A DNA stretch of 64,000 nt from a virus. Lineage: Duplodnaviria; Heunggongvirae; Uroviricota; Caudoviricetes. The stretch lies in IMG/VR virus record IMGVR_UViG_3300035521_000566; one strand, given 5' to 3'. Shown here piece after piece: positions 36,497 through 48,400 of the stretch. Under the pieces are notes generated by a model, which did no database searches, had not been told where the DNA came from, and saw only the letters and a list, made by a program, of their open reading frames with translations. How positions within the stretch are numbered: position 1 is the first letter of the stretch; every line of letters begins with the position of its first letter. Both the position numbers and the translations under genes were made by a program.

Positions 36497-38323
36497 ATGG
36501 GATTGAATAATTTTACAAATCCTAACAGCACCAACAACGGAGGAAACAACAAGAATCCTTTAAACGGTGTAAGCAGTCATGCAGGTAACGGTGCTAATAA
36601 TAATGCATCGGATTATGACGCAATGGACTTTCTGATTGATTACAACAAAAAGTTTCAGACTGCAGGTAAGACAATGTTCAGAGATGAAATTGTAGAACAA
36701 ACTTTAGCTGTCCTAATTGGAAAAAATAAGCCGAATGCTTTGCTTATCGGTTCAGCTGGAGTTGGTAAGACCAAAATTGTTGAAGACCTTGCTTTTCGTT
36801 TAGCAACAAACGATGGTATTGTGCCTGACACATTAAAAGGCTTCACAATTTATGAGCTTCCATTGTCTAACATCGTATCAGGTAGTTCCTTTGTTGGTCA
36901 GTTAGAAGAAAAGCTAAAATCAGTAATTGATTTTGCAGAGGATAAGAAGAACAAAGCTATTTTGTTCATTGATGAAATCCATATGATTGTATCTGACAAT
37001 CAGATTTACAGCAAGATGGCAGAAATCTTAAAGCCTGCTCTTGCCAGAGGAGAGATGCGTGTAATCGGAGCCACTACTTTGCAGGAAAGTCAGGACTTAA
37101 TCGACAATCCAGCTTTCAACCGAAGATTTTCAAGATTGATTGTGGATGAGCTGTCTCGTGAGCAGACTGTTGAAATTCTGAAAAGTATGAAAGGCTCATT
37201 CTTTACACATTACGGCAATAAGATTACAATTGATGATGCAATGCTTGAGACTGTTGCTGTCCTAGCAGATGAGTTTCACGCAGCAGGCAACCACAGACCT
37301 GATACAGCCATCACATTGCTAGACCGTACTATCGGTGACGCTATTGTTGCTCGTAAAGTAATGGAAGAATCTGCAAAGAATGACCCTGCTTTACTCGCAG
37401 CCATTCAGTCAGTTACACTAATTCCGATTACCGAAAAGCAGTTAAGAACTACTGCTGTTAAGCTGGCTACAGGTAACAACAAAAAGGCAGACCTTGATGT
37501 TGACGCTTTAAAAGCAGACCTTAGCGTAATTAAGGGACAGGACGAGATTATCGACACTCTGGTAGAGCGTATCAGACGTAACGATATGAACTTATTCCCT
37601 AAAGTTAAGCCGCTTACAATACTATTTGCAGGTACTTCAGGTGTTGGCAAGACAGAGGTCACAAAGATAATTGCAAAAGAAATCACAGGTGTTAAGCCTA
37701 TTACCCTTAATATGACAGAGTTCCACTCTCCTGCTTCTATCAATCGAATTATCGGTGCTCCAGCTGGCTATGTAGGTAGTGACAGCAAGGCTGAACTTCC
37801 ATTTGATTGTCTGGAGTCCAATCCTTATCAGGTAATTCTGCTTGATGAGTTTGAGAAGTGTGATAAGTCAGTGCAGAGACTATTTATGTCCGCATTTGAC
37901 GAGGGCTATATTAAGACCAACAAGGGCAAGATTGTAGACTTCTCAAAGGCAATTATTATTGCAACTACTAATGCAGCTCATAAAGACCACAAGAACTCAC
38001 TTGGCTTTACTCAGGGCGAAACCAAATCGTCCAATAAATCCGAAATTAAAGATTTGAGCCAGTGGTTTGATACGGAGCTGTTAAACAGGTTCGACACCAT
38101 CGTAACCTTTAACGAGTTGTCAAAAGACATTTATCGTGAAATCATAGCTGACACATATCATCGTGAAGCTGAACGTATTCTCTCAGAGAATAAGAAAATA
38201 AAGCTTGCACCTGATATGCCAGACGCTGACCTCGATAAAATCGTTGAAGATACTTACATCCCATCCTTTGGTGCAAGACCTGCTGGTAAGGCTGTTCGGC
38301 AGTATATTGAAGACCATGCATAA
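36497..38323 (+). CDS. ClpA/B/C-like Hsp100 ATPase with two AAA modules, lacking N- and M-domains
   Basis: GSAGVGKT, FIDEIH, GATT; GTSGVGKT, IIGAPAGYVG, LLDEFEK; SLGF loop; FGARP. Confidence 0.92.
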   Translation: MGLNNFTNPNSTNNGGNNKNPLNGVSSHAGNGANNNASDYDAMDFLIDYNKKFQTAGKTMFRDEIVEQTLAVLIGKNKPNALLIGSAGVGKTKIVEDLAFRLATNDGIVPDTLKGFTIYELPLSNIVSGSSFVGQLEEKLKSVIDFAEDKKNKAILFIDEIHMIVSDNQIYSKMAEILKPALARGEMRVIGATTLQESQDLIDNPAFNRRFSRLIVDELSREQTVEILKSMKGSFFTHYGNKITIDDAMLETVAVLADEFHAAGNHRPDTAITLLDRTIGDAIVARKVMEESAKNDPALLAAIQSVTLIPITEKQLRTTAVKLATGNNKKADLDVDALKADLSVIKGQDEIIDTLVERIRRNDMNLFPKVKPLTILFAGTSGVGKTEVTKIIAKEITGVKPITLNMTEFHSPASINRIIGAPAGYVGSDSKAELPFDCLESNPYQVILLDEFEKCDKSVQRLFMSAFDEGYIKTNKGKIVDFSKAIIIATTNAAHKDHKNSLGFTQGETKSSNKSEIKDLSQWFDTELLNRFDTIVTFNELSKDIYREIIADTYHREAERILSENKKIKLAPDMPDADLDKIVEDTYIPSFGARPAGKAVRQYIEDHA

Positions 38324-38431
38324 ATATGTTATAGGTGTGCATTGAAAAAAAATGCACGCCTATAGCCTGATACAAATAAATAAATATGCAGACAGTATAT
38401 GCTGTCTACAAATACAAATAAGGAGATAAAT

Positions 38432-41266
38432 ATGCCAGTAATTTTAGACGACGTTCAAAAGAATATTGCGGCTACCACTAAGAAAAATGCTGTCAAATCA
38501 TATAAGGCTAAGTTCTTTAGCGATGTATTGACAGGTTCAGGAAAGAAAACTGGACTCCTAAGTGAAGCTGCAAATCCATCAGCATTGGCTGCGACCAAAA
38601 ACGGCACTGTTACTTCAGCCAACATTCAGACATTAAAGAAAAGAACCGTGTCTGGAAATGTTACTACTAACTATATACCTCTTAATCCGTTGGATGCAGA
38701 CGCCTGGGAACAGATGAAGATTCATAAAAGACCAGAGCTTGCAGATATGGTATGCATCGCAAAGCATCCGACTACGAATGAAAGCGTATATCTTGATATG
38801 CCAGTTCATTCTATTATTGCTCAGGAGACTGAGACTAAAACAGGCAGCAAGATTCGTAAAATTAACCCTTGCTATCAGTTATTCCTGTACACAATTCGTG
38901 ACATAAACGATGTAAATCACGAAATGGTAAGAACAGCTGTAAGCAAAGCAAACGGCAATTCATATTTCTTTGATTTCACTGTAAGTCCTCTTCGTTTTCT
39001 TCAGTCAATTGCAAATGATTTGACAAATGCAGGTTACAGCGTTGACGCACAGACAATGAACGACTACATCACCAACTATGTTTTGTACAATGCTGTTGCA
39101 AAGCGTAGTGAGGAATGGCAGACAAAGATTGATACCATTATTGACGAGTATCTTGACAACATGGTGAAGTCAACAGTTTATGGTGCAAATAGTAAAATAA
39201 AAAATACCATTAAGAGACTTGAGACATACAATGTTCCACTTGATTTGTACCGTAACATCTATAGCAGCTTACAGAAGCACTTTAAGCCAGATGATGTTGC
39301 CTCTTTATGTAAGCATAACCTGAATCTGTTGTTATCGGATACATTAAACAGTCTGAATAACAATAAGCCTCAGTTGCAGCACATTCCAACTCCAAACCCA
39401 TCTGTTGCACTTCCAAGCAATGTTGCTAAGTGGTCCAGTGAGCAGAAAATTGCTGTAACAACCCCAGAGCCGTTAGTATTGGTCCAGGCAGGTGCTGGTA
39501 CTGGAAAGAGTACAGTAATTTTAGGCAGACTGAGTTACATGCAGGCTTGCGGTGTTGACCCTGACGATATTACTATCTTAAGCTTCACCAACGCTGCCGC
39601 TGACCATATCACTGAACTGGATGCTAACGTACACAGTATGACCATTGCTAAAATGGTTCATAGCATTTACTCAGAGAATTATCCTACGCACGAGCTTTCA
39701 TCAGAAAAGACACTGATGAACTGTATTGATATTTACTTTGCAAATAACAACACAGCTTCTCGGTTCAAGTACCTGTTGGGCGATGTAGAGCGTAATGAGG
39801 CAAATGCGTATACCGATTTGAATAACTTCGTTGAAGATAACTTCGATGAGGTCATAAACATTTTGAATGTTACACGCCAGACAACTCTTACACTTGAGAT
39901 TATCATCTGTTATCAGAAGATTGATATACTTACAGAACCAGCTGAAATCAAGAGTAAGTATCTTATCGTTGATGAAGTACAGGATAACTCTATCTTTGAG
40001 TTCATCTATACTCTGAAATATGTCGATAAGCATAACGAGAGTCTTTTCATCGTAGGTGACTGCTCTCAGACTCTTTACGAGTTCCGTGGTTCTAATCCTA
40101 GAGGATTGAATGTACTTGAGAGCTCAGGCGTATTCGCTACTTATCAGCTTCAGACCAACTATCGTTCCAATCAGGAGATTTTGGACTTTGCTAATAAGCA
40201 CTTGCTTAACATCGAAGCCAATCAGCAGGCTAATCTGCAGTTAAAGGCTAACTCACTTGCAAAGGTAACCGAAAAGACATTCAGACAGAAAGTAAATCTG
40301 TCATATCACTGTCTCCAGAAGGTCGGTGATTTCAGTATCAACATTGGTCCTAACTTTGCTGTTTACTGTAAGAATTATATTGATAGCTGCCTTGCCAGAG
40401 GTGAACAGATTGCAGTTCTTGCGTACAAGCGTAAGGACATTTATTGTATCGAAGAAGCTATCAAGAAGTTATATCCTACTGCCACTATCAACAATCTGAT
40501 TCCAAAGCGTCAGTATGACAGTGCTATCTTTTCAGCGTTCATTAAAAACTACTGGAATGAGGTACAGTTCATTCCGACAAAATCAATTGAGATTGTAATT
40601 TGTCAGGCTATTATCGGAAAGGTTGATTTCTTAATGAGAGGCGACCATAACAAGAACTTAGCAATAATTCAGAAGTCAGTTGGCGGTTGGCGTACTCAGA
40701 ATGCAGGTATTATTCAGTCGTGGCAGACACAGTATACTCACGGCTTGATGAACCAGGACGAGTTTTTCGAGAATTTAAAGCAGAGTCTGCTTGATTATGA
40801 GATTCGTACGAACTCTATCAGACAGTCATTGCTTGCTGCTCAGAATGAAGAAGCCAAGAAGAATGCGGACCCTAATGCTAACTTTGTGCTCAGTACAATT
40901 CATTCTGCAAAAGGTCTTGAGTTTGATAACTGTATTGTTATTCATCGTAATGATAATAACATGGATGAAGACCAGAAGCGTATGTACTATGTGGCGTTCA
41001 CCAGAGCAAAGAACACAGAGCTTATCCTGTCATATGATACTGTTAAAAGCCCACAGATTGAGACGAACTACAAGCTTATCTGTCAGCAGTTACACGAACA
41101 GGATATAACACTTGCAAAGACAATGGGAAAGACACATAACATCATTGCAAACAATGTCAGCACAGAAGTGATTGACGATGATTTCTACAATGCCGATGGC
41201 ACATACGCTACTATTGTAGCTAATACAAATGCTACACCTTTAGCACCGACAGGCACTGAAGACTAA
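38432..41266 (+). CDS. UvrD/PcrA-like SF1 helicase with long N-terminal extension
   Basis: QAGAGTGKS, LSFTNAAA, VDEVQD, VGDCSQTLYEFRG, NYRS, STIHSAKGLEF, YVAFTRAK. Confidence 0.93.
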   Translation: MPVILDDVQKNIAATTKKNAVKSYKAKFFSDVLTGSGKKTGLLSEAANPSALAATKNGTVTSANIQTLKKRTVSGNVTTNYIPLNPLDADAWEQMKIHKRPELADMVCIAKHPTTNESVYLDMPVHSIIAQETETKTGSKIRKINPCYQLFLYTIRDINDVNHEMVRTAVSKANGNSYFFDFTVSPLRFLQSIANDLTNAGYSVDAQTMNDYITNYVLYNAVAKRSEEWQTKIDTIIDEYLDNMVKSTVYGANSKIKNTIKRLETYNVPLDLYRNIYSSLQKHFKPDDVASLCKHNLNLLLSDTLNSLNNNKPQLQHIPTPNPSVALPSNVAKWSSEQKIAVTTPEPLVLVQAGAGTGKSTVILGRLSYMQACGVDPDDITILSFTNAAADHITELDANVHSMTIAKMVHSIYSENYPTHELSSEKTLMNCIDIYFANNNTASRFKYLLGDVERNEANAYTDLNNFVEDNFDEVINILNVTRQTTLTLEIIICYQKIDILTEPAEIKSKYLIVDEVQDNSIFEFIYTLKYVDKHNESLFIVGDCSQTLYEFRGSNPRGLNVLESSGVFATYQLQTNYRSNQEILDFANKHLLNIEANQQANLQLKANSLAKVTEKTFRQKVNLSYHCLQKVGDFSINIGPNFAVYCKNYIDSCLARGEQIAVLAYKRKDIYCIEEAIKKLYPTATINNLIPKRQYDSAIFSAFIKNYWNEVQFIPTKSIEIVICQAIIGKVDFLMRGDHNKNLAIIQKSVGGWRTQNAGIIQSWQTQYTHGLMNQDEFFENLKQSLLDYEIRTNSIRQSLLAAQNEEAKKNADPNANFVLSTIHSAKGLEFDNCIVIHRNDNNMDEDQKRMYYVAFTRAKNTELILSYDTVKSPQIETNYKLICQQLHEQDITLAKTMGKTHNIIANNVSTEVIDDDFYNADGTYATIVANTNATPLAPTGTED

Positions 41267-41276
41267 TCAATTATTC

Positions 41277-41320
41277 ACATAGCTATCGTAAGGTCTTTAC
41301 CTTACGGTAATTATGTGTGA
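41277..41320 (+). terminator. Hairpin after the helicase gene
   Basis: CACATAG..ATCGTAAGG-tcttta-CCTTACGGT..TTATGTG. Confidence 0.5.
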
Positions 41321-41350
41321 CTACTAAAACAATATAATGAAAGGAATTAT

Positions 41351-41959
41351 ATGAATAATACGAATAATAAGGTTGCCTATAACAAAGGCGACATATACCA
41401 TGTTCGTAGCGGTGCCATCAATTCAGTAGGCGATGAAATCTGGTCTGACAGACCTGCTGTTATCATATCCAACGATACAAGCAACAAATATTCAGGTGTT
41501 GTAACTATTGTATACCTGACTACAAGTAAAAAGAAAAGAATGAGACCAACTCATGTGCCTATTCTATCAGGAACAACTCAGGCACTTGCTATGTGTGAAC
41601 AGATATTTTCTGTTGACAAAACAAGACTTGACGATTACATCGGCAAAATTACAGACGAAGAAATTGCAAACATTGATTCTGCACTGATGTTCCAACTGGA
41701 AATCAATCCTGCTGCTCGTCCAACTTCTATTTTTAAGAAATGGGAGAATTATATCAATCGGAATAATATGAACATTGATAAATACAATGTTCCTGATTTC
41801 GACCAACCTTTAGACGCAGAAATTGCTCTGCCGTATAATACACTTGTTCATCCAGATGATTATACGAAAATACTGGAAGGTGAGATTGAAACATTAAAAG
41901 ACGAGGTAGAAAAATATAAACAGCTGTATGATACCTGCAAAGGATATTTAGTAAGCTAG
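41351..41959 (+). CDS. PemK/MazF-family endoribonuclease domain with C-terminal coiled coil; no adjacent antitoxin
   Basis: GDIY, RPAVIISND, VYLTT, AMCEQIFSVDKTRL. Confidence 0.88.
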   Translation: MNNTNNKVAYNKGDIYHVRSGAINSVGDEIWSDRPAVIISNDTSNKYSGVVTIVYLTTSKKKRMRPTHVPILSGTTQALAMCEQIFSVDKTRLDDYIGKITDEEIANIDSALMFQLEINPAARPTSIFKKWENYINRNNMNIDKYNVPDFDQPLDAEIALPYNTLVHPDDYTKILEGEIETLKDEVEKYKQLYDTCKGYLVS

Positions 41960-41963
41960 ACAA

Positions 41964-41998
41964 GATGCCTATGACAATTGTCGTAGGCATCATTTTTA
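41964..41998 (+). terminator. Terminator-like hairpin directly upstream of the RT RBS
   Basis: GATGCCTATGAC-aatt-GTCGTAGGCATC-ATTTTT. Confidence 0.7.
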
Positions 41999-42016
41999 TA
42001 GAAAGGCAAACGATAT

Positions 42017-43276
42017 ATGACAGGCTACTTAGACGAAGTATTCTTTGAACCAAGTCGCTGGCAAACGGCTATTGACATTGCTGTTGACAAAGGAATTGAT
42101 AAACGATTACTTCAAAAATTATGTTGTCCAAACGAACGAATCAAACTCTATTATAGCCTGCGTGAACATAACTATACGATTGCTCCGCCTCACGAAGCCT
42201 TAATTCCTAAGGATGACGGCACATTTCGTACAGTCTATGTAAATGAAGGTATAGACAGGGTTATTCTTTCTATTGTGAATGATATGCTGTTTGAGCTATG
42301 TCCCGAACTGATACACAAATCATGCAAATCCTATCAAAAAGGTATAGGATGTGGCAAAGTTGTGCAGGAAATCAGTCAGACAATAAATAAGCTCAATGGT
42401 CCAAAAATAGGTGTGAAAGTTGATTTATCCAAATATTTTGATTCTGTTGAACTGCCATATATTGACGAGGTGTTCGACTATATTGATGAGAAATACGGAA
42501 AGTCAGACATCATGGATGCAGTAAGGACTTATTATCACACCAACACAGTTTTAGACATCAACAAAAACACCATCGAAAAATACTCGTCATTAAGACAAGG
42601 CTGTGCCGTAGCAGCATTCCTGGCAGATGCCGTGCTACTGGACATCGACAGTGTTTTATCTGATATGAACGTAATTTATGTAAGATACTCTGATGATATT
42701 CTTATATTAGGCAGAGAATGGGAAAAGGCTTTTAACATAATGAAAGTCATGCTCGAAGAAAAAGGTCTTACACTGAATCCGAAAAAAGTTGAACAACTAT
42801 ATAAAGACAAGTGGTTCAAATTTTTAGGCTTTACGTTAAAGAACGACAAAATCAGTCTTTCTAAAACTCGCATTGATAACTTTCAGGAAGAAATCATAAA
42901 ACGCACTATTAAGAACCCTAACAAAGATATAAATTGCATCATTCACGATGTTCATGCATATTTGTATAAGGGCTACAACGAATTTAGCTGGGCTACCAGC
43001 GTACTTCCGATTATCAATGTGGATGAAGATATATTAAAACTAAATAGCTTTGTAATGGACGCCATTCGTGCATCTATTACAGGCAAGCACAAAATCGGTG
43101 GACTTGGATGTATAACAAACATGCCAGATTCCACCATCATGCGTGGCAAGGGTAACAACGTGAAATCGAATCGTACTACTCTCCCACATTTAAACGGTTA
43201 CTACACCATCAATTGTATGCGTAACGACTTACTCACATCTCGTGAAGTTTACAATACAATTACATCACAAATGTAA
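42017..43276 (+). CDS. Reverse transcriptase, unclassified group (UG27-like by recollection)
   Basis: IPKDDGTFRTVY, SYQKG, VDLSKYFDSV, LRQG, YSDD (42686-42697), FKFLGF; no En domain, Cas1, retron VTG/NAxxH or DGR context. Confidence 0.92.
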   Translation: MTGYLDEVFFEPSRWQTAIDIAVDKGIDKRLLQKLCCPNERIKLYYSLREHNYTIAPPHEALIPKDDGTFRTVYVNEGIDRVILSIVNDMLFELCPELIHKSCKSYQKGIGCGKVVQEISQTINKLNGPKIGVKVDLSKYFDSVELPYIDEVFDYIDEKYGKSDIMDAVRTYYHTNTVLDINKNTIEKYSSLRQGCAVAAFLADAVLLDIDSVLSDMNVIYVRYSDDILILGREWEKAFNIMKVMLEEKGLTLNPKKVEQLYKDKWFKFLGFTLKNDKISLSKTRIDNFQEEIIKRTIKNPNKDINCIIHDVHAYLYKGYNEFSWATSVLPIINVDEDILKLNSFVMDAIRASITGKHKIGGLGCITNMPDSTIMRGKGNNVKSNRTTLPHLNGYYTINCMRNDLLTSREVYNTITSQM

Positions 43277-43284
43277 TATATTAA

Positions 43285-44060
43285 ACGACACAATTTGGCA
43301 GTACAGCCTAGAATTATAAGAGTGATATGACCATATTATAGCCTCATAACAATTAGAATGTATACCATTCATTGTTATATGCCTTTCGGCTATAATATGG
43401 TCTCTTCTAGTTGAGGTAAATCCAGAAGACGGTGATGACATGTGAACGTTCGTCCTTATAAGCTTGAGATGAAGTGCATTGCAGCTGGAGATGCTGTTGG
43501 ACAGATACTCATGTAAATAAGAATTTAAGGATGATAAGGTTCCAAGGTCCCATAAAACTTGAGCGGTCGTAACTTCGAATCCTGTTAAATAGTATATAAG
43601 TCAACAGTTAAAAAAAGATATGAAGTAGACTCATCGTTTAGTTCCTTCTTAAGGAATTTGGTCAACGCCTCCTAAGGATTCTTTCTTAAGAATTCAGAAT
43701 CTGAGATTAGTATCCAGTAATGGTCACCTGCGGAATTTACGTAATCTAACGTTTAGTCCGCCAGTGAGATGGAAGCTAGAAACGGGCACAGCCGTGCTGA
43801 GCTGATTCATGATTCCTGGATTGAATTCCTGAAGAGTAGGTGATTAAATAAATAATCTCTATGCCTGATTATTGTCTGTCACGAAATCAGGAATGCCAAT
43901 AAGGTTCGTACGAAATAGACGTCTGAGCCCACTGATACAAATGGATGTAACGCTCCCAGAGTTCATTGCGTATTCAACTAGAATGTTATGAATATATATT
44001 TGATGTATAATGTATTTTCATATAATTTAACAATTATAGAGATGTGCCACATCACTTGAG
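43285..44060 (+). ncRNA. Candidate RT-associated structured ncRNA (template)
   Basis: No ORF of 60 aa or more in the track between 43277 and 44098; ~100-nt hairpin 43308-43410 with a perfect 15-bp stem; 10-bp long-range pair 43405-43414/43974-43983; 3' hairpins. Confidence 0.7.
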
Positions 44061-44098
44061 TAATTCACTTTATAAAATGACTTAAGAGGAGTCATAAT

Positions 44099-44497
44099 AT
44101 GAACACAGTAAATTTCAAAACACGCACAGCCAGAATGGGTAAACACCTAATTATTAAAGACGGTCAACCCATAAAAGGCTATGAAATTCGCAACGATACT
44201 TCTGTCGAAGAATTGGACGAATTATACAAAGCTTACAAGCACTCTGTTCCAAACGGAATACACTATTATAAACCATACTTTAAAGCCCTTGACGCTGATG
44301 AATTATCAGATGCAGACATGATTACAGGAGCTAATCGAGAACAGGCTAAATTTGATTTAGAGCTTGCTGTCTTAGAGGGCATTTTGAATGGTTCATTATT
44401 AAGTTTATTCACTGACCCAAAACAATGGTTCTGGCAATCGCAATCAGATAAAGAATTTATCATATTAAGAGAATGGATAGAACCTAAAGGAGCCTAA
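44099..44497 (+). CDS. RT partner protein A (unknown function)
   Basis: 132-aa ORF right after the ncRNA; YKHSVP, YFKAL and WFWQS...IILREWI motifs. Confidence 0.75.
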   Translation: MNTVNFKTRTARMGKHLIIKDGQPIKGYEIRNDTSVEELDELYKAYKHSVPNGIHYYKPYFKALDADELSDADMITGANREQAKFDLELAVLEGILNGSLLSLFTDPKQWFWQSQSDKEFIILREWIEPKGA

Positions 44498-44498
44498 T

Positions 44499-45167
44499 AT
44501 GGACAATATAGAACAAAAAATCTTAGACGCAGGCTACATCAACAATAATCGTCTCCATAGGCGATACGTCATGACACAAATGCTTCGCCATCTCGACAAC
44601 TTTGATGATTATTTTATAACCAGAAAGCCATATGAATATATATGGAACTCTGCACTGAACGAATTTTCAATGCAATGTGAATGCGATAATGAAGAACGTA
44701 AACTCAGATTTTTACTGTTTGGCGGCTCCGTTATATCTGAGATGTTAAAAGACTTTAAAGTTCAGATAATCAAGAGCTATATAACGCCTGCAACTTTAGA
44801 TTATCTTGACACTTTAATTTCATCGGCTAAAACGGCTAGAAATAGCTGGCAAGTGAAGCAAATTATAGAACATTTCATACGCTCATATGATATAAAACAA
44901 AACTACACAAAGCCAGATATTTGGATAACATCATTCAAAGCTATCGGTGCTTACTACACGATGGATAGTTTGATTAAACTTTATGATTGCAGAACAATAC
45001 GTCAAGGTGATGTATTCGTCACTTTGTCAACAGAAGATGCTCTCTCATGTTTAGACAAATGGAAATCAACACCTGAATTGCTATTTGACATTATGCTGGA
45101 TTTCATCAAAGCCAATCAGAAACAGATTGACGAGCTAACGCAAAAAGAAAAATTACAAGAACCATAA
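44499..45167 (+). CDS. RT partner protein B (unknown function)
   Basis: 222-aa ORF starting 1 nt after the partner A stop, RBS AAAGGAG inside A; NRLHRRYVMTQM and FKAIGAYYTM..LI motifs. Confidence 0.75.
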   Translation: MDNIEQKILDAGYINNNRLHRRYVMTQMLRHLDNFDDYFITRKPYEYIWNSALNEFSMQCECDNEERKLRFLLFGGSVISEMLKDFKVQIIKSYITPATLDYLDTLISSAKTARNSWQVKQIIEHFIRSYDIKQNYTKPDIWITSFKAIGAYYTMDSLIKLYDCRTIRQGDVFVTLSTEDALSCLDKWKSTPELLFDIMLDFIKANQKQIDELTQKEKLQEP

Positions 45168-45170
45168 TTT

Positions 45171-45209
45171 AAGGCTACGACTGTTTCTAACAGTTAGGAG
45201 CCTTTTTTT
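45171..45209 (+). terminator. Terminator closing the RT unit
   Basis: AAGGCT..ACTGTT/AACAGT..AGCCTT followed by a T tract. Confidence 0.75.
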
Positions 45210-45248
45210 ATTAAACATTACAAAGGAACAAACTGACACGATTTGATA

Positions 45249-45278
45249 TTGCAAATTCAGTGTACATTGTGATACAAT
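45249..45278 (+). promoter_or_regulatory. Promoter for the large ncRNA/tRNA
   Basis: TTGCAA, 18-bp spacer, TGaTACAAT extended -10. Confidence 0.6.
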
Positions 45279-45283
45279 AACTG

Positions 45284-45993
45284 ATGCGGGCGTAACGCTG
45301 TTACGCTAAAGCATTTTATGGAAACTTTGGTTGCATTTGCAATCGGTTTCGACATTTTATCAACTATGTATCTCGGTGCATAAGGGGTCTAATCAACCCT
45401 TCCGAGAAACTTCCGTAACTTAGGTAATAAGCGAAGGCTAAAATTGAGGGATACCTCAATCAGGGCTAATTCAGATGATTGTGAATGATTCTGAGAGATA
45501 TAACAATATCTTGCTTCGGAAGTTGTGCAACTCTATATGGTCATAGTGTAGGGTGTAAATGGTGAACGAAATAGACGCTGACTCGAAAGGTCAGAAGAAT
45601 CCTATATACTGCAAGGCTGGTAACCGTGTACGTCAATGTAGGAAATACCAAACAAGTTCATTTGCCGTGAAGCCACAGAAATGTGGTGTATAACATTTGC
45701 ACGACCTGCTTAGCTCAAGGCAAGAAGAAAATATTTTCTAATCAAATGCTTATGATTATGCATTTTTTTTAAGAAAACAATTCTGAAAGATATGGGTGAA
45801 AGCTACGGGTACCATTCCCGTGTAGGCTCTGGCGTTTTACGTTGCATAAGAAGCACGGACTTGCAAACCGTTGCTCAGACTTATGTACCTACTAGCACGA
45901 TAATGAGTAGTATAGACATTGTAAGCCGAATAAAAAGCTACATATATTGATAATAATGTTTGAACCTAATGCAAATTGCAATCATATGTTTTC
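45284..45993 (+). ncRNA. Large ornate structured ncRNA, ROOL-like
   Basis: No ORF; long terminal helix 45321-45370/45939-45993; many hairpins; segments CCTTCCGA..CCGTAAC, TATATGGTCATAGTG, AACGAAATAGACGCTGAC, CTGAAAGAT and TTGCTCAG resemble ROOL as I recall it; tRNA immediately downstream. Confidence 0.7.
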
Positions 45994-46008
45994 ATTTTTT
46001 TTTTATAA

Positions 46009-46079
46009 CGCAGGTTAGAGGAGTGGTTCCTTGCGGGGGTCATAGCCCTGAGACACCAGTTCGAATCTGGTACCTGCTA
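46009..46079 (+). tRNA. tRNA-Met (CAT), initiator type
   Basis: Cloverleaf: CGCAGGT/ACCTGCT with unpaired C1:U72, three consecutive G-C pairs in the anticodon stem, TTCGAAT T-loop; CCA not encoded. Confidence 0.92.
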
Positions 46080-46124
46080 CTCTTACGTTTTTGAACTATT
46101 TAGCAAGAAGCCTCCTAAAGTAAG

Positions 46125-46180
46125 AAAAAGGGAACCTGCGTCGCTCATCATATGAGTTACGTGGGCTCCCTTTTTTTTTT
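46125..46180. terminator. Bidirectional terminator at the convergence of the two gene arms
   Basis: AAAAAGGGA...TCCC-T10 with internal CTCAT/ATGAG stem. Confidence 0.75.
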
Positions 46181-46546
46181 AATTTAATCACGCTTACGAA
46201 GACGTCTTTCTATATACTCACTTGCCCATCTCATCTTAACCCGATAAATATAATTCAAAAATCTCATCATATGTACCACCCCTTTCTGTTACAATGCCCC
46301 TCTGACGCTCTCAGACGCCTCAGAATTGATTTTAAAGTATTTAAACGAACAAGTTTACACCTGAATAATTAAAATGCCTTAAATCGCCTTCTACGGCTCT
46401 TTTAATTTTAATAAAAAGCACCTATTAAAGAAAATGCTTTAACAGGTGCTTTCACAAACACATATACGGTACTATGGACACGCCAGTACCGTTTTGGCTA
46501 CATCGTACGCATATAATTTGTTGCATACATTTGAAGACCTTCGGTC

Positions 46547-46852
46547 TTACTCTGCTGGCTCAAATAAATCATACACAATAATTGGAGCTCTATCACCCAT
46601 ATCGTCCATTGACGGAATTGTATTCGTATTCAAATACTCAATTGCGTCTTCTTCTGACATGTTGTTGTCATTCATCAGCTGATTTACCATCAAACTGAAA
46701 TTGTATACTATTCTATCCTTCTCATCTACACCGATAATTGCATCAGCAAACTCAGGCTCACTGAAAAGAATAATAGACTCCAGCTTCTCTGGTGTATTCT
46801 CATACACCTCCACTAATACATCAACAACATCTGCATTTGTTAATTCTGCCAT
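46547..46852 (-). CDS. Acidic hypothetical protein
   Basis: Start moved to MAELTN (46852) behind GAAAGGAAG. Confidence 0.7.
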   Translation of the reverse strand: MAELTNADVVDVLVEVYENTPEKLESIILFSEPEFADAIIGVDEKDRIVYNFSLMVNQLMNDNNMSEEDAIEYLNTNTIPSMDDMGDRAPIIVYDLFEPAE

Positions 46853-46895
46853 AACCTTTACTTCCTTTCTTTTTACTAAAATTTTTTTTTTAATT

Positions 46896-47255
46896 TTAAT
46901 TAAGCACAATTGTATAATAATCATCTGGCTTTAGTTCAAAACGAATCTCGTTATCATCTGCTGTGAACAAAGCTACTGATTTCGATTGTACCACCACACC
47001 CTTACTGTACTCAGAACCATCTCTCGTATACTCAAGTGGTACAAGTCCGATGTTCTTACCAGGTGTAATATACTGATTCCCATGATTGTCCTTGCAACAA
47101 TCCGAAATTTTATCAGAAAAACAAACAGCAAATAAAGGGATTGAGCCACATTTTAAAGCGTCTGTAATTCTTGTCACTTCACCAGGCGTAAATACATGGG
47201 TTATATCACCAAAGTAAAAACCTAATATTGAGGCTAACATATTTCGTTGTATCAT
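46896..47255 (-). CDS. Hypothetical protein
   Basis: 119-aa ORF, co-linear with neighbours. Confidence 0.6.
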   Translation of the reverse strand: MIQRNMLASILGFYFGDITHVFTPGEVTRITDALKCGSIPLFAVCFSDKISDCCKDNHGNQYITPGKNIGLVPLEYTRDGSEYSKGVVVQSKSVALFTADDNEIRFELKPDDYYTIVLN

Positions 47256-47272
47256 ACTTCCTACTACCTCAC

Positions 47273-48400
47273 TTACTCCTTATGCAATTTATCAAAAGCA
47301 GCCTGCATTGTTGGATTATCATTGCAAAGCCGTTTAATATCAAGATTTGACGCTCTATCTCCTGCCAGACGCATCTGCCGCTCTGCTGCCAGAATAGAAT
47401 CTCTTGTCTTTTGCAAACTTACGATTGCCTTATCAATCGTCTCAATTGATTCATTCAAACGCTTACTTGTCTGTTCAGAATTATAGGAAAACTTTGATTT
47501 AAACTCGTCTAAAGACTGTTCAAACTGATGCACATCTAAATCCTGATTCTGCAACACTGCAAGCTGTTTCTTAGACTCTAAAGAGTTTAATGCTGCATTA
47601 CGCAACACAGTAATAATCGGTATGAAAAACTGCGGTCTTACAACATACATCTTAGGATATAGATGCGAAACATCTACAATTCCCTGATTATATAAATCAT
47701 TATCAGACTCAAGCATCGAAACCAAAACTGCATATTCACAACCCTTTTCCCTACGGTCTTTATCAAGCTCCTTGAAAAAGTCACTGTTCTTATGCTTCTT
47801 CTCTGTTGATTCCATTTCGTTTTTCATCTCAAACATAATAGAAACAAACTCAACATCATCTTCATAGTCACGATATATAAAGTCGCCCTTTGAGCCAGTC
47901 TTTGATATTGCATTGTCTTTGTCAAAATAAGCATTTCGAAAAGCTGTCGGTCTGAGCTTATCAAACTCATTCATACAATGCTGTTCCAAAGTCTCGCCTA
48001 CCATTTTGGTACTCATACGAGCTTTCAAATCTTTATAATATTCAACTTCGTTTGTTTTTGCCTGTACTTGCAGCTGTAATTCTGTACATTTTGCATCATA
48101 TTCAGCACGAAGCTCCATTGATAGCTTTTGCATATCAAGCTTATGCTCTTTCTCAACTGTTCTTGCTTCTATTCTGAGTGCGTCAAGTTCAGCAGACACT
48201 TTATGCAATTTTTCCTGTTCTTCAGAAACAGCCTTATTCATTTTTAACTTTGTCTCAGTTTCAGCTAACGCTTTTACTTCATGCAGACGCTTCTCCAGCT
48301 CTCTGTCAAACTCGTTAGTACGAACCTGTGCTAATATTCGAGCACTTTCATCTTCGGACAAATTAAAAATCTGATTACAATGAGGGCACTTAATTTCCAT
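47273..48400 (-). CDS. DUF2130-family coiled-coil protein
   Basis: MEIKCPHC, KMVGETLEQHC, KGDFIYRD, SIMFEMKNE, KDRREKGCEYAVLVSMLE. Confidence 0.85.
   Translation of the reverse strand: MEIKCPHCNQIFNLSEDESARILAQVRTNEFDRELEKRLHEVKALAETETKLKMNKAVSEEQEKLHKVSAELDALRIEARTVEKEHKLDMQKLSMELRAEYDAKCTELQLQVQAKTNEVEYYKDLKARMSTKMVGETLEQHCMNEFDKLRPTAFRNAYFDKDNAISKTGSKGDFIYRDYEDDVEFVSIMFEMKNEMESTEKKHKNSDFFKELDKDRREKGCEYAVLVSMLESDNDLYNQGIVDVSHLYPKMYVVRPQFFIPIITVLRNAALNSLESKKQLAVLQNQDLDVHQFEQSLDEFKSKFSYNSEQTSKRLNESIETIDKAIVSLQKTRDSILAAERQMRLAGDRASNLDIKRLCNDNPTMQAAFDKLHKE

Follow-up and report, generated by a model that had tools for sequence, protein, structure and literature searches.

The spacer between a UG27 reverse transcriptase (RT) gene and its accessory genes in a large phage or conjugative element appears to contain, at positions 43297 to 44066, a single giant UG27 ncRNA unit, in which a frame surrounds a first hairpin (H1), a cargo closed by a long-range helix (LR) and a last hairpin (H_last), and which would template a long cDNA. 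We give this reading a probability of roughly 0.7. Covariation among eight loci demonstrates the architecture of the giant unit and its conservation. All positions refer to the window, the whole 64,000-nucleotide stretch of viral DNA that was analysed (IMG/VR record IMGVR_UViG_3300035521_000566). The UG27 system and the frame of its unit were already known; the giant single unit, a pseudoknot spanning 0.5 to 1.3 kb, the junction of H1, LR and H_last and the palindrome-rich cargo are new relative to the main texts on UG27. Few RT systems are as abundant as UG27 in gut phages and other large mobile elements, and thousands of UG27 RTs exist. To our knowledge, a 2026 preprint is the sole experimental study of this system.

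UG27 belongs to class 2 of the UG/Abi RTs, occurs mostly in gut phages and has been linked to protein clusters 346 and 337 and to a putative structured ncRNA predicted to be needed for function (Mestre et al. 2022, PMC9226505). CMfinder was used to predict the structure of this ncRNA, which was described as 'three long stem-loops' located past the RT and ahead of the accessory cluster, a description that did not contain units (PMC9226505). The Minerva preprint of September 2026 (bioRxiv 10.64898/2026.09.22.753630) described the spacer as an array of units of ~135 to 167 nt, each of which has a pseudoknot, a basal hairpin and a main hairpin whose internal loop is asymmetric. The RT and two accessory proteins, sORF and bORF, were reported in the same study to yield jointly cDNAs of 50 to 100 nt from each central hairpin, with the canonical cDNA starting at the AUC of AUCN7UANAG and ending past a UUYA motif; the published covariance model of the unit places a AUCNNNNNNNUANAG motif 3′ of the templated element and UUYA 5′ of the central hairpin (bioRxiv 10.64898/2026.09.22.753630). 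This canonical anatomy was re-derived in relatives of the window locus: L006 has six tandem units and L008 has five units with AUG-N7-UAAAG, and in the canonical units of both loci the loop of the basal hairpin pairs with the 5 nt that follow the motif.

The RT, the two accessory proteins and a long structured non-coding spacer that make up a UG27 (class-2 UG/Abi) system were all present in the window (Table 1). The PADLOC RT_UG27 match is full length (6 to 419 of 420). The RNA had been described as RT linked in the first-pass annotation, and this assignment was upheld by the strength of the PADLOC match (E = 3.8e-180) and by the accessory genes downstream. The genes are in the order RT, spacer, sORF, bORF, with the latter two adjoining each other directly downstream of the RT-spacer block. 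The spacer (43277 to 44098) is 822 nt in length, contains no ORF and has a minimum free energy (MFE) of −218.5 kcal/mol (z = −4.37). No intrinsic terminator was found within it, no phage GenBank record was matched by it in a blastn search, and an Rfam search of positions 40000 to 48000 (E ≤ 1) detected only a ROOL RNA and one tRNA, with no match to the spacer. A retron identity was considered and rejected, as the best retron model scored only E = 1.2e-14 (54 bits, against a cutoff of 235), the ncRNA follows the RT gene and no Rfam retron family was matched.

The neighbourhood of the operon was also surveyed. The ROOL RNA (Rfam RF03087, 249.9 bits) is full length and is located directly downstream of the UG27 operon at 45348 to 45959; two large structured RNAs are, therefore, positioned side by side. 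The tRNA, with a CAU anticodon, is also downstream of the operon (46009 to 46079). Upstream of the RT, the region from 36497 to 41959 encodes a ClpB-like double AAA ATPase, a UvrD-like helicase, also matched by 'RTasHel' of PADLOC, and a MazF/PemK-like protein carrying a C-terminal extension. The genes for the UvrD-like helicase and the MazF protein are common to the window and L015 to L018 and are probably outside the core of the system because a UDG gene takes their place in other clade members. NrdD, ThyX and helicases are also encoded by the window, and metagenomic contigs, the longest of 210 kb, encoded an RT identical to that of the window.

Table 1. Features of the UG27 locus in the window
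Feature	Position	Strand	Details
UG27 reverse transcriptase	42017-43276	+	419 aa; PADLOC RT_UG27 E=3.8e-180; Pfam RVT_1; YSDD at residues 224-227
Basal hairpin BH1 (GGC-AGUACA-GCC)	43297-43308	+	Stem paired in 24/24 cells (8 loci); also in MFE structure
P1 5′ strand GAAUUA (43311-16) and P2 5′ strand AGUGAU (43321-26)	43311-43326	+	
H1 hairpin	43329-43402	+	15-bp perfect outer stem, asymmetric internal loop, apical stems
LR 5′ strand UUCUAGUUGA	43405-43414	+	Position conserved, sequence not (8 loci)
Cargo closed by LR	43415-43973	+	Variable length, rich in 6-bp palindromes
LR 3′ strand UCAACUAGAA	43974-43983	+	Read at the locus; pairing conserved (8 loci)
H_last, short hairpin between LR and start motif	43987-44022	+	−8.8 kcal/mol in the window
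3′ motif AUU-N7-UAUAG (44025-39), then AGA and pseudoknot partner UGUGC (44043-47)	44025-44047	+	
P2 3′ strand AUCACU (44051-56) and P1 3′ strand UAAUUC (44061-66)	44051-44066	+	
sORF, small accessory protein, Mestre cluster 346	44099-44497	+	PADLOC RTas346 E=7.4e-33
bORF, large accessory protein, Mestre cluster 337	44499-45167	+	PADLOC RTas337 E=4.1e-23

The giant unit was compared between the window and seven loci (L015/L016, L019, L020, L022, L023, L025 and L026), the RTs of which are 61 to 68% identical and form one clade with the window RT (support, 100/100). Frame elements were located by regular-expression and pairing scans, and pair counts were taken from anchored tables; a MAFFT alignment of the 5′ parts was out of register at H1 and was set aside. 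For P1/P2 and for LR, the duplex energies of cognate and non-cognate strands were tested against 7309 derangements. Scans of genome contigs and viral contigs detected only RTs of 46 to 55% identity, associated with canonical or distant arrays, and a metagenome scan detected no further members of the giant-unit clade. For distant loci, k-mer enrichment across their long 'spacers' was also calculated but was discarded because coding sequence confounded it. The RT of one additional locus, L024, nests in the giant-unit clade, and its 477-nt spacer (L024:4261-4737) has no recognisable basal hairpin, motif or P1/P2 frame, indicative of either loss of the frame or a different RNA.

In all eight loci, a basal hairpin whose loop has 6 nt was located 10 to 25 nt past the RT stop codon, and its stem exhibited changes on both sides at all three positions. 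Two outer helices, P1 and P2, flank a conserved internal loop, which is U(A/G)AG versus (U)GAG across the clade and consists in the window of UAAG between the 5′ strands and UGAG between the 3′ strands. P1 was paired in 47/48 cells of the anchored tables and P2 in 48/48 cells, with changes on both sides at 5/6 positions in each helix (eight loci). The mean energy of the cognate P1/P2 duplexes was −15.1 kcal/mol, as compared to −6.7 kcal/mol for non-cognate duplexes, and none of the 7309 derangements was as good. The loop of BH1 (43301 to 43305) pairs with 44043 to 44047 in a 5-bp pseudoknot that spans 742 nt in the window. This pseudoknot was paired in 40/40 cells and was changed on both sides at 5/5 positions in the eight loci, while the separation of its strands ranged from 503 to 1269 nt; the pairs include GUACA/UGUGC in the window, AUACA/UGUAU in L015, ACGUA/UACGU in L019, ACGCA/UGCGU in L020 and UUACG/CGUAA in L025.

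The 3′ side of the frame has the motif AU(G/U)-N7-UA(U/A)A(G/A), followed at equal spacing by the partner of the loop, in 8/8 loci. The start triplet is AUU in the window and AUG or AUU in the relatives, as opposed to the published AUC. The exact published motif pattern was absent from the spacers of the window and the clade, and ATCN7TANAG with up to one mismatch was not enriched in the window (228 found and 251 expected). No UUYA motif 5′ of H1 was shared by the eight giant loci; the window has only AU between P2 and H1.

H1 is a long perfect hairpin of 73 to 99 nt, located ~20 nt past the basal hairpin in 8/8 loci. In the window, its outer stem is formed by GACCATATTATAGCC (43329 to 43343) and GGCTATAATATGGTC (43388 to 43402), and its apical stems by ATAACAAT (43346 to 43353) with ATTGTTAT (43371 to 43378) and GAATG (43356 to 43360) with CATTC (43366 to 43370). 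Base-by-base reading located every stem quoted in the first-pass annotation, as well as the CTAGAA at 43308 to 43313, exactly where it had been placed. The 5′ part of the spacer (43295 to 43416) had an MFE of −36 kcal/mol (z = −3.83), a value not reached by any of 200 shuffles. The outer 12 bp of H1 were paired in 96/96 cells and changed on both sides at 12/12 positions, with sequences that differed between the eight loci; a compensatory change from U-A to A-U distinguishes the window from L015. Between the outer strands of H1 (43344 to 43387 in the window), an asymmetric internal loop has a conserved UGC(Y) on its 3′ side, occurring as CUGCGC...UGCUCG in five relatives and as UGCC...UUC in the window and L015. 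This conservation suggests that H1 is not free cargo but has a specific role, for example in binding a protein or in signalling a stop.

The long-range helix is a perfect 10-bp pairing of TTCTAGTTGA (43405 to 43414) with TCAACTAGAA (43974 to 43983). In all eight loci, LR starts 0 to 5 nt past H1, its 3′ strand is just upstream of a hairpin at the position of H_last and this hairpin abuts the start motif. The sequences of LR are unrelated between loci, with pairs of UUCAUCAGC/GCUGAUGAA in L019, GAAAUAUAGA/UCUAUAUUUC in L023, AUAGUUAA/UUAACUAU in L025 and UUAAGUAGAUU/AAUCUGCUUAA in L026; two alternative registers are possible in L015. Cognate LR duplexes had a mean energy of −12.5 kcal/mol and non-cognate duplexes one of −6.95 kcal/mol, with 0/7309 derangements as good, and this far greater stability indicated that the 10-bp helix is real. 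The domain closed by LR had, on its own, a z-score of −2.93. The unconstrained MFE structure of the spacer holds BH1, P1, P2, H1 and LR together. Hence, the two helices of the first-pass annotation, for which folding and a comparison of homologues had been suggested as checks, were both conserved structures that occurred in the same fold together with two outer helices.

The first-pass annotation had also proposed that H1, when extended by pairing of CTAGAA with UUCUAG, and LR are mutually exclusive folds and form a switch that gates or positions reverse transcription. Pairing of the 24 nt before H1 with the 18 nt after it yielded −9.7 kcal/mol in the window, which was better than every non-cognate pair, and the CTAGAA closure appeared when the 5′ part was folded in isolation. 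This closure would form first during transcription, such that its displacement would be needed for formation of LR and P1. Across the eight loci, cognate closures were slightly better than non-cognate ones (means of −4.7 and −3.5 kcal/mol; 50/7391 derangements). The seven other loci, however, exhibited only −1.5 to −6.8 kcal/mol, mostly from extensions of H1 by 1 to 3 bp, so a strong closure is confined to the window and is not conserved. CTAGAA also shares bases with the 5′ strand of P1, a strand that covaries strongly with 44061 to 44066, and the full-length MFE structure picks P1/P2 and LR. As CTAGAA recurs at 43978 to 43983, UUCUAG can pair with either copy, and this repeated hexamer (43308 and 43978) is sufficient to explain the coincidence. 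A switch is, on this evidence, very unlikely, while the CTAGAA closure may be a transient co-transcriptional intermediate of the window locus only. The accompanying analogy to the a1/a2 arms of retrons was apt in spirit; the part that was not supported was the use of H1 and LR as the marks for the RT, since elements further out are likelier candidates. The start and stop of the RT are most likely marked by P1/P2, the 742-nt-range pseudoknot and the AUU-N7-UAUAG motif, all of which the first-pass annotation had missed.

Tandem arrays are the published rule for UG27, L008 has five tandem units and 822 nt is about five times 160. The window spacer could, hence, be read as an ordinary array of four or five ~150-nt units, with H1 as the central hairpin of unit one and LR as a chance match. 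Three of the loci do carry one canonical unit of ~160 nt, with its own basal hairpin and pseudoknot, after the giant unit (L020 IG 781-950, L022 IG ~905-1075 and L023 IG ~1320-1480); no such unit was found after the giant unit of the window. This reading is extremely improbable, however, as the window spacer contains one basal hairpin and one 3′ motif that are 742 nt apart and pair with each other, has no internal repeat and has an LR that is conserved in eight loci. Searches within the cargo similarly found no canonical unit and no internal pair of a basal hairpin and a motif. AUC-N6-8-UAGU triplets in the cargo (at about 43586, 43699 and 43745) were considered as candidates and rejected, being without partner hairpins.

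The cargo of the giant unit is highly variable. The prediction that LR encloses a discrete domain of ~560 nt held for the window (544 to 559 nt) and extended to the clade, as a closed cargo of 304 to 1073 nt was present in 8/8 loci. No similarity between the cargos of different loci was detected by blastn, and the longest stop-free stretch in the cargo was 62 codons. Cargo length shifts by indels flanked by microhomology: L016 is equivalent to L015 plus 285 nt. This insertion (L016:5064-5348), relative to an L015 locus with an identical RT, is flanked by microhomology of GAAAGAAAGA and includes about five copies of a 9-nt unit, AGTAAGATT. Four contigs with an identical RT differed solely in an A-run at 43610 to 43616, which had 7 A in the window and 10, 11 and 12 A in the others, a difference due either to hypervariability of the homopolymer or to an artefact of assembly. 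These contigs, the only near-identical copies, thus showed no covariation within the cargo.

The lack of sequence conservation between loci and the indels at microhomology could also fit a separate element lodged in the ncRNA, consisting of DNA-level sites for an origin, packaging or protein binding or of an unrelated RNA, that is bridged by the helices and is not a template; the richness of the cargo in palindromes (see below) is typical of DNA-level protein-binding sites. An LR-closed cargo was, however, found at the same structural position in 8/8 loci despite RT identities of 61 to 68%, the cargo has neither an Rfam match nor an open frame, and the published mechanism copies everything from the start motif to the 5′ side of the frame. 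We, therefore, consider a lodged element that is not copied to be unlikely.

Relative to dinucleotide shuffles, palindromic hexamers were enriched 1.5- to 3.4-fold in the cargos of 8/8 loci, and in five of these the observed count was reached by 0 of 200 to 300 shuffles. The excess was modest for the window cargo alone (1.8-fold; 3 to 5 of 200 to 300 shuffles reached it). When the eight cargos were pooled, 198 palindromic hexamers were detected, compared to about 84 expected, and these represented 48 of the 64 types, with 14 to 28 different 6-bp palindromes per locus. Palindromic hexamers of intermediate GC content were enriched 3.5-fold in the eight cargos; palindromes of 8 and 10 bp were also enriched and those of 4 bp were not. 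The density of palindromes was 25 to 53 per kb in the cargos versus 10 to 11 per kb in the remaining 63 kb of the window. Outside 43277 to 44098, 6-bp palindromes were present in the window at about 0.6 times the dinucleotide-shuffle expectation, indicative of strong avoidance, and GAATTC, TTCGAA and AACGTT were at 0.37 to 0.49 of the Markov expectation outside the spacer. The other non-coding gaps of the window, when pooled, had 14.6 palindromes per kb as compared to 28.6 per kb in the cargo. No enrichment was observed for the RT and coding genes, the ROOL RNA or the canonical arrays of L006 and L008. The cargo palindromes were not in excess at the apices of predicted hairpins (14/198, about 13 expected) and were not the most avoided sites of the element (observed/expected of 0.87 versus 0.75).

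The excess of palindromes within the cargo, against their avoidance in the surrounding sequence, is the first sequence property that hints at a function, and an anti-restriction decoy is the obvious candidate. The cargo might be a fast-evolving 'polylinker', copied by the UG27 machinery into abundant cDNA that would titrate, as a decoy or sponge, restriction endonucleases of the host or other defence nucleases that recognise palindromes. This proposal, which draws on the palindrome counts of eight cargos, is a doubtful one. A decoy role is disfavoured by the fact that restriction enzymes act poorly on single-stranded cDNA that is neither annealed nor made double-stranded. If the proposal were true, large mobile elements would have in giant UG27 units an RT-based means of countering restriction.

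Returning to the giant unit as the preferred reading, a mechanism can be proposed by analogy with canonical units. The frame is that of the published ~150-nt unit, with a pseudoknot, a basal hairpin and two outer helices that surround a purine-rich internal loop. In place of the single central template hairpin, it encloses about 700 nt, in which H1, the LR-closed cargo and H_last form a three-way junction. The RT, sORF and bORF would begin the cDNA at AUU (44025 to 44027) and copying would run leftwards through H_last and the cargo and then through H1, towards about 43327. The predicted product is a single-stranded cDNA of up to ~700 nt, in place of the usual 50- to 100-nt hairpins; alternatively, the RT might stop at LR or H1, and an early stop might yield only a copy of H_last. 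H1 and LR would have an architectural role in organising the template and insulating the cargo rather than acting as a switch. As the frame closes over 500 to 1270 nt within the clade, it can be viewed as a portable 'cassette holder', and a long cargo can make up what is templated. Giant units provide a clean test system for what sets the start and stop of the RT, and the giant frame may serve as a natural scaffold for producing long single-stranded DNA in cells.

The giant unit can be compared with other systems in which an RT is associated with a structured RNA. DRT2 (UG2) likewise has a class-2 UG/Abi RT and a structured, pseudoknotted ncRNA that is both scaffold and template. No rolling-circle junction was evident in the giant UG27 locus, and the concatemeric cDNA of DRT2 encodes an ORF whereas the cargo has no open frame. 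Terminal complementary arms that enclose a templated region and position the RT are shared with the msr-msd of retrons, and the product would in both cases be a structured single-stranded cDNA. The UG27 RT, in contrast, is of another lineage (class-2 UG/Abi), is not associated with a demonstrated branching-G context, has its ncRNA downstream of the RT and adds a pseudoknot and two accessory proteins, and the giant template is an order of magnitude longer. The ncRNA of Mestre et al. (2022, PMC9226505) has the same location and belongs to the same system, but was described without the frame, the pseudoknot or the cargo. The closest likeness in parts is to the published UG27 units, with which the window shares the three proteins, the gene order, a YSDD RT, a basal hairpin with a 6-nt loop, a loop pseudoknot after UANAG, a two-part outer stem and AUN-N7-UANAG. 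The giant units differ from these in having AUU or AUG instead of AUC, in being without the UUYA motif and in a palindrome enrichment of the cargo that is not seen in the canonical arrays of L006 and L008. Moreover, a three-way junction stands where the central hairpin would be, the pseudoknot spans 503 to 1269 nt in the giant clade (742 nt in the window) rather than ~130 nt, and the window has one unit of ~770 nt where five or six units of 135 to 167 nt were published.
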